A stretch of 17,427 nt of DNA. Source: Escherichia coli (GTDB lineage: Bacteria; Pseudomonadota; Gammaproteobacteria; Enterobacterales; Enterobacteriaceae). The notes under the pieces were generated by a model, which made no database searches, was not told the DNA's origin, and was given only the letters and a program-made list of their open reading frames with translations. The stretch lies in the NCBI RefSeq assembly GCF_003334305.1, contig NZ_QOWS01000040.1; one strand, written 5' to 3'. Numbering within the stretch: the first letter of the stretch is position 1; each line of letters opens with the position of its first letter. The position numbers were made by a program, and so were the translations under genes. Shown here piece by piece: positions 4,127 through 4,146 of the stretch.

Positions 4127-4146
4127 GCCCGGCTTGCCGGGCTTTT
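4127..4146 (+). terminator. Intrinsic terminator/attenuator-like hairpin between fecA and fecB
   Basis: GCCCGG-cttg-CCGGGC perfect 6-bp GC stem followed by TTTT, immediately after the fecA stop. Consistent with the known lower expression of fecBCDE relative to fecA. Confidence 0.6.

Follow-up and report, generated by a model that had tools for sequence, protein, structure and literature searches.

Organization of the fec locus and of the fecA-fecB junction

The DNA analyzed here, termed the window, is a stretch of 17,427 nucleotides from Escherichia coli, and positions are those of the window unless another genome is named. It carries the E. coli gene set fecIRABCDE. Each gene scores above the cutoff of its own NCBIfam equivalog and the RefSeq annotation agrees. 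The features of the locus are shown in Table 1.

Table 1. Genes of the fec locus and elements of the fecA-fecB junction in the window.
Feature	Position	Strand	Basis
fecI	235–756		NCBIfam equivalog; RefSeq
fecR	753–1706		NCBIfam equivalog; RefSeq
fecA, TonB-dependent ferric dicitrate receptor, first gene of fecABCDE	1793–4117	+	NCBIfam NF041676 equivalog, 1523 bits; RefSeq
fecA stop codon, TGA	4115–4117	+	sequence
Spacer between fecA stop and stem, 9 nt, TGTGTTAAC	4118–4126	+	sequence
Stem-loop: 5′ arm GCCCGG (4127–4132), loop CTTG (4133–4136), 3′ arm CCGGGC (4137–4142)	4127–4142	+	sequence, folding, literature
T (U) tract TTTT, followed by AGCT	4143–4146	+	sequence
RNA 3′ end, published	4150	+	Term-seq (Adams et al. 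2021), MG1655 4514320, minus strand
Shine-Dalgarno-like GGAA of fecB, 8 nt 5′ of the ATG	4151–4154	+	sequence
fecB, periplasmic ferric dicitrate binding protein	4162–5064	+	NCBIfam NF008501; RefSeq start ATG 4162
fecC	5061–6059		NCBIfam equivalog; RefSeq
fecD	6056–7012		NCBIfam equivalog; RefSeq
fecE	7013–7780		NCBIfam equivalog; RefSeq

The fecA stop codon and the fecB ATG have 44 nt between them; the stem starts 9 nt 3′ of the stop codon and ends 19 nt 5′ of the ATG. A first-pass annotation, made from the sequence alone, had described a GC stem plus T4 between fecA and fecB, and its coordinates are exact (4127–4142 for the stem and 4143–4146 for the T run). The GTTAA of the spacer at 4118–4126 can pair with TTAGC at positions 4145–4149, which lengthens the helix and gives an extended fold of −14.7 kcal/mol. 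The GGAA at 4151–4154 is the predicted ribosome-binding site of fecB, and other genera display GGAG at the equivalent position. Transcripts that end at position 4150 do not contain this GGAA. The four downstream genes that depend on read-through are fecBCDE, which extend to position 7780.

The sequences that adjoin the locus show several additional features. Upstream of fecI, the small-protein gene ykiE is annotated on the minus strand (positions 30–98). Downstream of fecE there is a frameshifted IS3-like ISEc52 transposase (positions 8675–9844, annotation transferred from E. coli strain 504838). The window has 99.5% identity with strain 504838 up to position 9905 and diverges beyond it. In the part that follows are a 125-aa N-terminal fragment of an AcuI/YhdH-type reductase (9914–10291, minus strand), an IS1 transposase fragment (10914–11273, minus strand), an antiporter (11825–13294, plus strand), a 789-aa Orn/Lys/Arg-type decarboxylase (13399–15768, plus strand; the best model is arginine decarboxylase with 740 bits, which is below the cutoff of 1167) and a second antiporter (15843–17342, plus strand). 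The region 9905–17427 looks like an IS-flanked acid-resistance-like island adjoining fec. Between the stop codon of the decarboxylase and the start of the second antiporter, a 13-pair palindrome (TACCGTCGGATCGCCTGCAATCCGACGGCA) is found at positions 15785–15814. It is scored by the terminator scan as a minus-strand terminator; on the plus strand it is an intercistronic stem-loop without a clean U tract, in a position analogous to that of the fec hairpin.

A segment of 90 bp from the 5′ part of fecB (positions 4160–4249, from about the start codon) is present with 97.8% identity on some E. coli plasmids, e.g. NZ_CP182192.1 and NZ_CP122761.1; the annotation of these plasmids gives it as hypothetical or omits it. 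This piece is probably a remnant of a fec locus.

Properties of the hairpin

The fec site is listed in a consensus terminator scan of the window, with 6 pairs, all G-C, and a loop of 4 nt. The scan yields 30 sites in the window as against 18.1 ± 3.6 in shuffled sequences; with this high background, listing of the site by itself carries little weight. A strict pattern, defined as 6 perfect G/C pairs, a loop of 3–8 nt and T4 within 1 nt of the stem, was searched on both strands of the window. It occurs once in 17.4 kb, whereas dinucleotide shuffles contain 0.023 on average, and of 300 shuffles 2% have at least one.

The hairpin alone folds at −11.2 kcal/mol, and in a 200-nt context the pairs of the stem have probabilities of 0.98–0.99. 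Tests based on energy point the other way. The folding energy of the 76-nt context is unexceptional (z = −0.64), and the stability of the spacer is equaled or exceeded in 15.5% of the 45-nt windows of the E. coli fec locus. Thus the E. coli hairpin is not unusual on energy alone. What goes beyond chance is the compact all-GC stem with its T run, the intercistronic position and the conservation. The case for the element rests on its form, position and conservation, and not on its energy.

The stem lies within the range of intrinsic terminators, i.e. it is G+C-rich, with a length of about 5–14 bp and a loop of 3–8 nt. The U tract of an intrinsic terminator is typically 6–8 nt in length, and the Us proximal to the stem matter most. 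In the fec element the stem is followed by UUUU and then AGCU, which gives four contiguous Us and a U in five of the first eight bases. Judged by its sequence, this tail appears suited to a weak terminator and falls short of a canonical one. On the opposite strand, the hairpin folds at −12.6 kcal/mol and has GUUAAC at its 3′ side instead of a U tract. The element is thus not a bidirectional terminator, and this candidate was rejected.

Conservation in Escherichia coli and in a close relative

A 37-nt segment that contains the hairpin was used to search complete E. coli genomes and is present in 2756 of 5426. It occurs once per genome (median, one place), always under or next to fecA and only at fec. 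The identity is 99% or higher in 2739 of 2762 E. coli records. A variant is found in strain 1332KP, where the third C of the stem is changed to T; this turns a C-G pair into a U-G wobble, so that the pair is kept.

Pseudenterobacter timonensis has the same stem, the T4 and the GTTAAC that precedes the stem, but its loop is TTCG instead of CTTG and the neighboring bases on both sides of the element differ. E. coli and Pseudenterobacter thus share the T4 but not the bases that come after it.

REP/BIME elements are present in many copies per genome and have a consensus of about 35 nt. The fec stem-loop has only 16 nt, and the single-copy nature of the 37-nt element, found only at fec, shows that it is not a dispersed repeat of this type.

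Comparison of fecA-fecB spacers across genera

A scan with FecB of one genome per species yielded 33 loci, of which 29 have a usable fecA-fecB spacer. These 29 spacers, together with three from plasmid matches and that of the window itself, form a set of 33 spacers from 13 genera. All 33 display a hairpin with a folding energy of −11 to −29 kcal/mol, and in 32 the hairpin begins 4–24 nt past the fecA stop codon. Compared with the other 45-nt windows of the respective locus, the spacer ranks in the top 5% in 25 of 30 loci and in the top 1% in 13.

Among the hairpins, at least six forms can be distinguished, and no two of these can be aligned. The form GCCCGG-N4-CCGGGC-TTTT is found in Escherichia, on a K. 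pneumoniae plasmid and in Pseudenterobacter. Photorhabdus and Pectobacterium share GCCGGGC-N4-GCCCGGC, with loops that vary freely; P. brasiliense shows one compensatory change here, from C-G to U-A. Erwinia and Pantoea have GCGGG...CCCGC. Inverted repeats of 15–17 bp with loops of 8–9 nt are present in Kluyvera, Citrobacter, E. cloacae and on Salmonella and K. variicola (Klebsiella) plasmids. In Enterobacter soli, Silvania and a Klebsiella the loops are long and the form is GCCGGG(T/C)...CCCGGC. Single forms are displayed by Xenorhabdus, Klebsiella indica and two Citrobacter.

Across the set, the stems are kept while the loops vary freely, and a small number of changes are compensatory. Covariation within the families is thin, with double changes in 2 of 20 pairs and in 1 of 7 pairs; the structural argument therefore rests on the recurrence of a hairpin across forms that cannot be aligned. 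No conserved element other than the stem was found across the genera compared.

The T run is not a constant feature. A run of three or four Ts directly 3′ of the stem is present in 16 of the 33 spacers, and none has more than four contiguous Ts; the other 17 have two or fewer Ts after the stem. Termination thus cannot be the function common to all genera. The comparison points to a stable stem-loop close behind fecA as the conserved requirement, and not to a canonical terminator.

Some of the homologous spacers in other genera resemble what we take to be REP-type or ERIC-type repeats. One is from Citrobacter sp. MGH106, where the fecA-fecB spacer is 225 nt long (positions 1276–1500 of the extracted locus) and has a 13-bp hairpin. 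Ahead of this hairpin is presumably an ERIC-like repeat (…AAGTAAGTGACTGGGGTGAG…), and the spacer would be an example of repeat insertion at the fecA-fecB junction.

Klebsiella plasmids commonly carry a second fec lineage with an identity of about 75%, and 274 plasmid records show identities of 60%–80%. In one of the loci compared, from the K. variicola virulence plasmid p15WZ-82_Vir (positions 467–700 of the extracted locus), fecA is followed by a long hairpin and by a fecB open reading frame of 51 aa only. With a fecB of this size, fecA is effectively an orphan receptor gene there.

Published transcript data

The hairpin downstream of fecA in E. coli K-12 was described by Enz et al. (1995, Gene 163:13), as reported in section 20 of the review by Braun (2022; PMC9249621); it has the same locus, sequence and proposed role as the element described here. 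That section states that Northern blots show an abundant 2.5-kb fecA mRNA, that the polycistronic fecABCDE RNA is detectable only by RT-PCR, and that the hairpin 3′ of fecA down-regulates fecBCDE. The first-pass annotation had proposed that receptor transcripts are more abundant than ABC transporter transcripts within one operon, and the results of Enz et al. (1995), as cited there, agree with this. Braun (2022) also describes trimming of the 6-kb long RNA to the more stable 2.5-kb fecA RNA, and part of the abundance effect is attributed in this account to the trimming.

An RNA 3′ end at the site has been mapped by Term-seq in strain MG1655 (Adams et al. 2021; PMC7815308). The entry in supplementary file 1 (sheet LB 0.4) is position 4514320 on the minus strand, with the class “primary” for fecA and 46,627 reads, and the sequence printed there is GGGTCGTTGAAGTTCTGATGTGTTAACGCCCGGCTTGCCGGGCTTTTAGCTGGAATGTGAT. 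The element in the window is identical to this MG1655 string; it does not differ from that of K-12 although the window is of a non-K-12 background. The printed string has 61 bases and the 3′ end is the 51st; this was calibrated with sgrS, for which the entry stops at the eighth U. With the annotation of NC_000913.3 (fecA end 4514353, fecB start 4514308), the entry converts to position 4150 of the window. This is 8 nt past the last base of the stem (position 4142) and directly 5′ of the fecB GGAA, and it falls within the distance of about 7–9 nt past the stem that is looked for in vivo for an intrinsic terminator. A lack of 3′ ends at the site would have spoken against the first-pass proposal; the published data place one there.

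Taken alone, a 3′ end at this distance of 8 nt from the stem could result from termination or from stalling of an exonuclease. The peak is modest, about twice the smallest minus-strand value among the rows of Adams et al. (2021) that were examined, and in these tables it is found only at LB OD 0.4 and is absent at LB OD 2.0 and in M63. The site is also absent from the bicyclomycin-sensitive (Rho) regions in supplementary file 2 of that work. Given the poor expression of fec in LB, this absence carries little weight.

Further 3′ ends are listed within the locus by Adams et al. (2021). One is in fecC, 56 nt past its start (window position about 5117, MG1655 4513353), and with 80,998 reads it exceeds the 3′ end at the fecA hairpin. 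Two more are near the start of fecI, at window positions of about 245 and about 321 (MG1655 4518224 and 4518148). None of the fecC and fecI ends is flagged as Rho-dependent in the entries for these sites. A search of the TERMITe supplements for further 3′-end data gave no fecA entry. A literature search, at the level of titles and abstracts, for a small RNA from the fecA 3′-UTR gave only small RNAs that act on iron-uptake mRNAs, including OmrA/OmrB.

Proposed mechanism and alternative explanations

The element is likely to be a constitutive, leaky Rho-independent terminator inside fecABCDE that also acts as a protective stem-loop at the 3′ end of the fecA RNA. Transcription would start at the FecI-dependent fecA promoter. 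Once the fecA stop codon has been transcribed, the nascent RNA would fold into the 6-bp all-GC hairpin with its CUUG loop, and the short UUUU would allow a fraction of the polymerases to release about 8 nt past the stem (position 4150), before the ribosome-binding site of fecB. The remaining polymerases would read through into fecBCDE, genes taken to lack a promoter of their own. RNAs that end at the hairpin, as a result of either termination or decay of their downstream part, would be shielded from 3′-to-5′ exonucleases. Termination and shielding together would make the 2.5-kb fecA mRNA accumulate far above the 6-kb full-length RNA. Such an excess would fit the need for far more of the outer-membrane receptor than of the ABC transporter. 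The hairpin, the difference in abundance and the 3′ end have been demonstrated in published work; how the effect is divided between termination and stabilization is our interpretation.

The weak U tract and the location of the stem just 9 nt from the fecA stop codon may both contribute to leakiness, and a ribosome that terminates at the fecA stop could interfere with folding of the stem. Li et al. (2015) found that the terminator tR2 is almost fully repressed when it is 8–9 bp from a stop codon and has maximal efficiency beyond 30 bp, which was attributed to the terminating ribosome. In favor of termination are the T4 that abuts the stem and is conserved with it, and the mapped end 8 nt downstream; in favor of leakiness are the short stem, the weak U tract and the production of fecBCDE by read-through. 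Against a terminator, the hairpin is weak for one (−11.2 kcal/mol) and is followed by just four Us, and 17 of the 33 homologous spacers have no T run of three or more.

The main rival of the leaky terminator, although it is unlikely, is that the hairpin is purely a barrier to decay. There would be no useful termination; full-length fecABCDE RNA would be cut downstream by an endonuclease or terminated by Rho, and PNPase or RNase II would then trim it 3′ to 5′ until stopped by the hairpin, leaving a stable fecA RNA. A stable stem-loop at the 3′ end of an abundant upstream segment is indeed present, with abundance and stability as given in section 20 of Braun (2022), and the statement on trimming in that review is in its favor. 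The hairpins without a T run are strong and include the 15–17-bp inverted repeats of Kluyvera, Citrobacter, E. cloacae and the Salmonella/Klebsiella plasmids, and Dar and Sorek (2018; PMC6061677) showed, for Rho-terminated transcripts of E. coli, that stable stem-loops without a U tract both set the position of the 3′ end and protect it. The T tract in E. coli, at 4 nt, is also short. However, it follows the stem without a gap, and Pseudenterobacter has kept the two together while the neighboring bases changed, and the mapped 3′ end is inside the usual release window of an intrinsic terminator. The absence of the site from the bicyclomycin-sensitive list also argues, weakly as noted above, against the involvement of Rho.

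The site had been called an attenuator in the first-pass annotation. The term holds if it is taken loosely, for a partial terminator that acts constitutively, but neither a leader peptide nor a competitive antiterminator fold was found. In a regulated attenuator, a signal such as iron, citrate, translation status or a small RNA would switch read-through by way of an alternative structure or a bound factor. With the stem 9 nt past the fecA stop, ribosome-polymerase coupling could grade termination (Li et al. 2015), and the Term-seq 3′ end was seen in one of three growth conditions; this condition dependence is more simply explained by the level of fec expression. Constrained folding yielded no competitive antiterminator: when the 5′ arm is made to pair elsewhere, the fold is at best 4–9 kcal/mol worse and the partner lies in translated fecA sequence. 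A scan of the whole window at the Rfam gathering thresholds gave no family match, and across genera only the stem is conserved. Because no competing alternative structure was found, the element is not considered a regulated attenuator, and this explanation is very improbable.

Hardest to credit is that the palindrome has no function in RNA and is a product of chance, a REP/BIME remnant or a DNA site for a protein. The unexceptional energy (z = −0.64, and 15.5% of windows as stable) would be in keeping with it, as would the presumed REP-/ERIC-type repeats in some homologous spacers. However, the strict pattern is expected only 0.023 times per window, the element is single-copy and occurs only at fec, and a published 3′ end at the site is matched by a Northern phenotype. 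In addition, all 33 spacers have a hairpin in this position although its sequence forms are unrelated, and this recurrence favors a structure over a sequence-specific protein site. The leaky terminator with a protective stem-loop thus remains the preferred explanation for E. coli.

Relationship to known systems

The malE-malF REP and the Rhodobacter puf element are classic examples of intercistronic stabilizers. The fec hairpin of E. coli does not belong to a dispersed-repeat family. In classical attenuators (trp, pyrBI, riboswitch platforms), too, the genes with lowered expression lie downstream of a terminator hairpin. The fec hairpin differs from them in that it has no leader peptide, sensor, mutually exclusive antiterminator or Rfam match, and in that it is found after a long translated gene and not in a 5′ leader.

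A relationship is also seen with the internal terminators that follow the binding-protein genes of ABC importers in Ruminiclostridium, which are located inside operons and set the stoichiometry of subunits (Wu et al. 2022; PMC9045158). In both cases a stem-loop with a low-U tail follows the first and most needed transport gene and termination is partial, and in both the stability of the hairpin affects the stability of the upstream transcript. There are also differences: the gene product made in excess is an outer-membrane receptor in fec and a binding protein in Ruminiclostridium, and the fec stem has 6 bp and is from Gram-negative bacteria whereas the stems described by Wu et al. (2022) are long, GC-rich and from Clostridia. 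The fec hairpin belongs in kind with internal terminators and stabilizers that set the ratios of genes within an operon.

The protective 3′ stem-loops without U tracts described by Dar and Sorek (2018) also consist of a hairpin behind a cistron, with a 3′ end just downstream and an upstream segment that is more common. This type describes well the 17 fec spacers that have no T run, but the E. coli fec hairpin has T4 directly after the stem.

Significance of the element

The hairpin and its effect on fecA relative to fecBCDE were already published in 1995 and the 3′ end has since been mapped genome-wide; thus the finding adds no new biology. The comparative result, a hairpin in 33 of 33 spacers with neither the sequence nor the T tract kept, is a small addition to the published picture.

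A broader proposal, speculative and rather doubtful, is that in the fec operons of Enterobacterales selection keeps any stable stem-loop about 4–24 nt past the fecA stop while its sequence has been replaced at least six times, including by long inverted repeats and by captures of repeat-like sequences, and that formation of the 3′ end is gated by translation. If this is true, 3′-end formation would depend on how closely the ribosome that finishes fecA trails the RNA polymerase, and lower translation of fecA, e.g. by OmrA/OmrB repression, would lead to less read-through into fecBCDE. The element would then be a translation-gated internal terminator or decay barrier and not a device that fixes a ratio.

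The fec locus is of clinical interest with respect to cefiderocol susceptibility and to virulence in mastitis and in the urinary tract. The hairpin explains how one promoter can give much more of the outer-membrane receptor FecA than of the FecBCDE transporter, and the FecA:FecBCDE ratio matters for an understanding of fec signaling.
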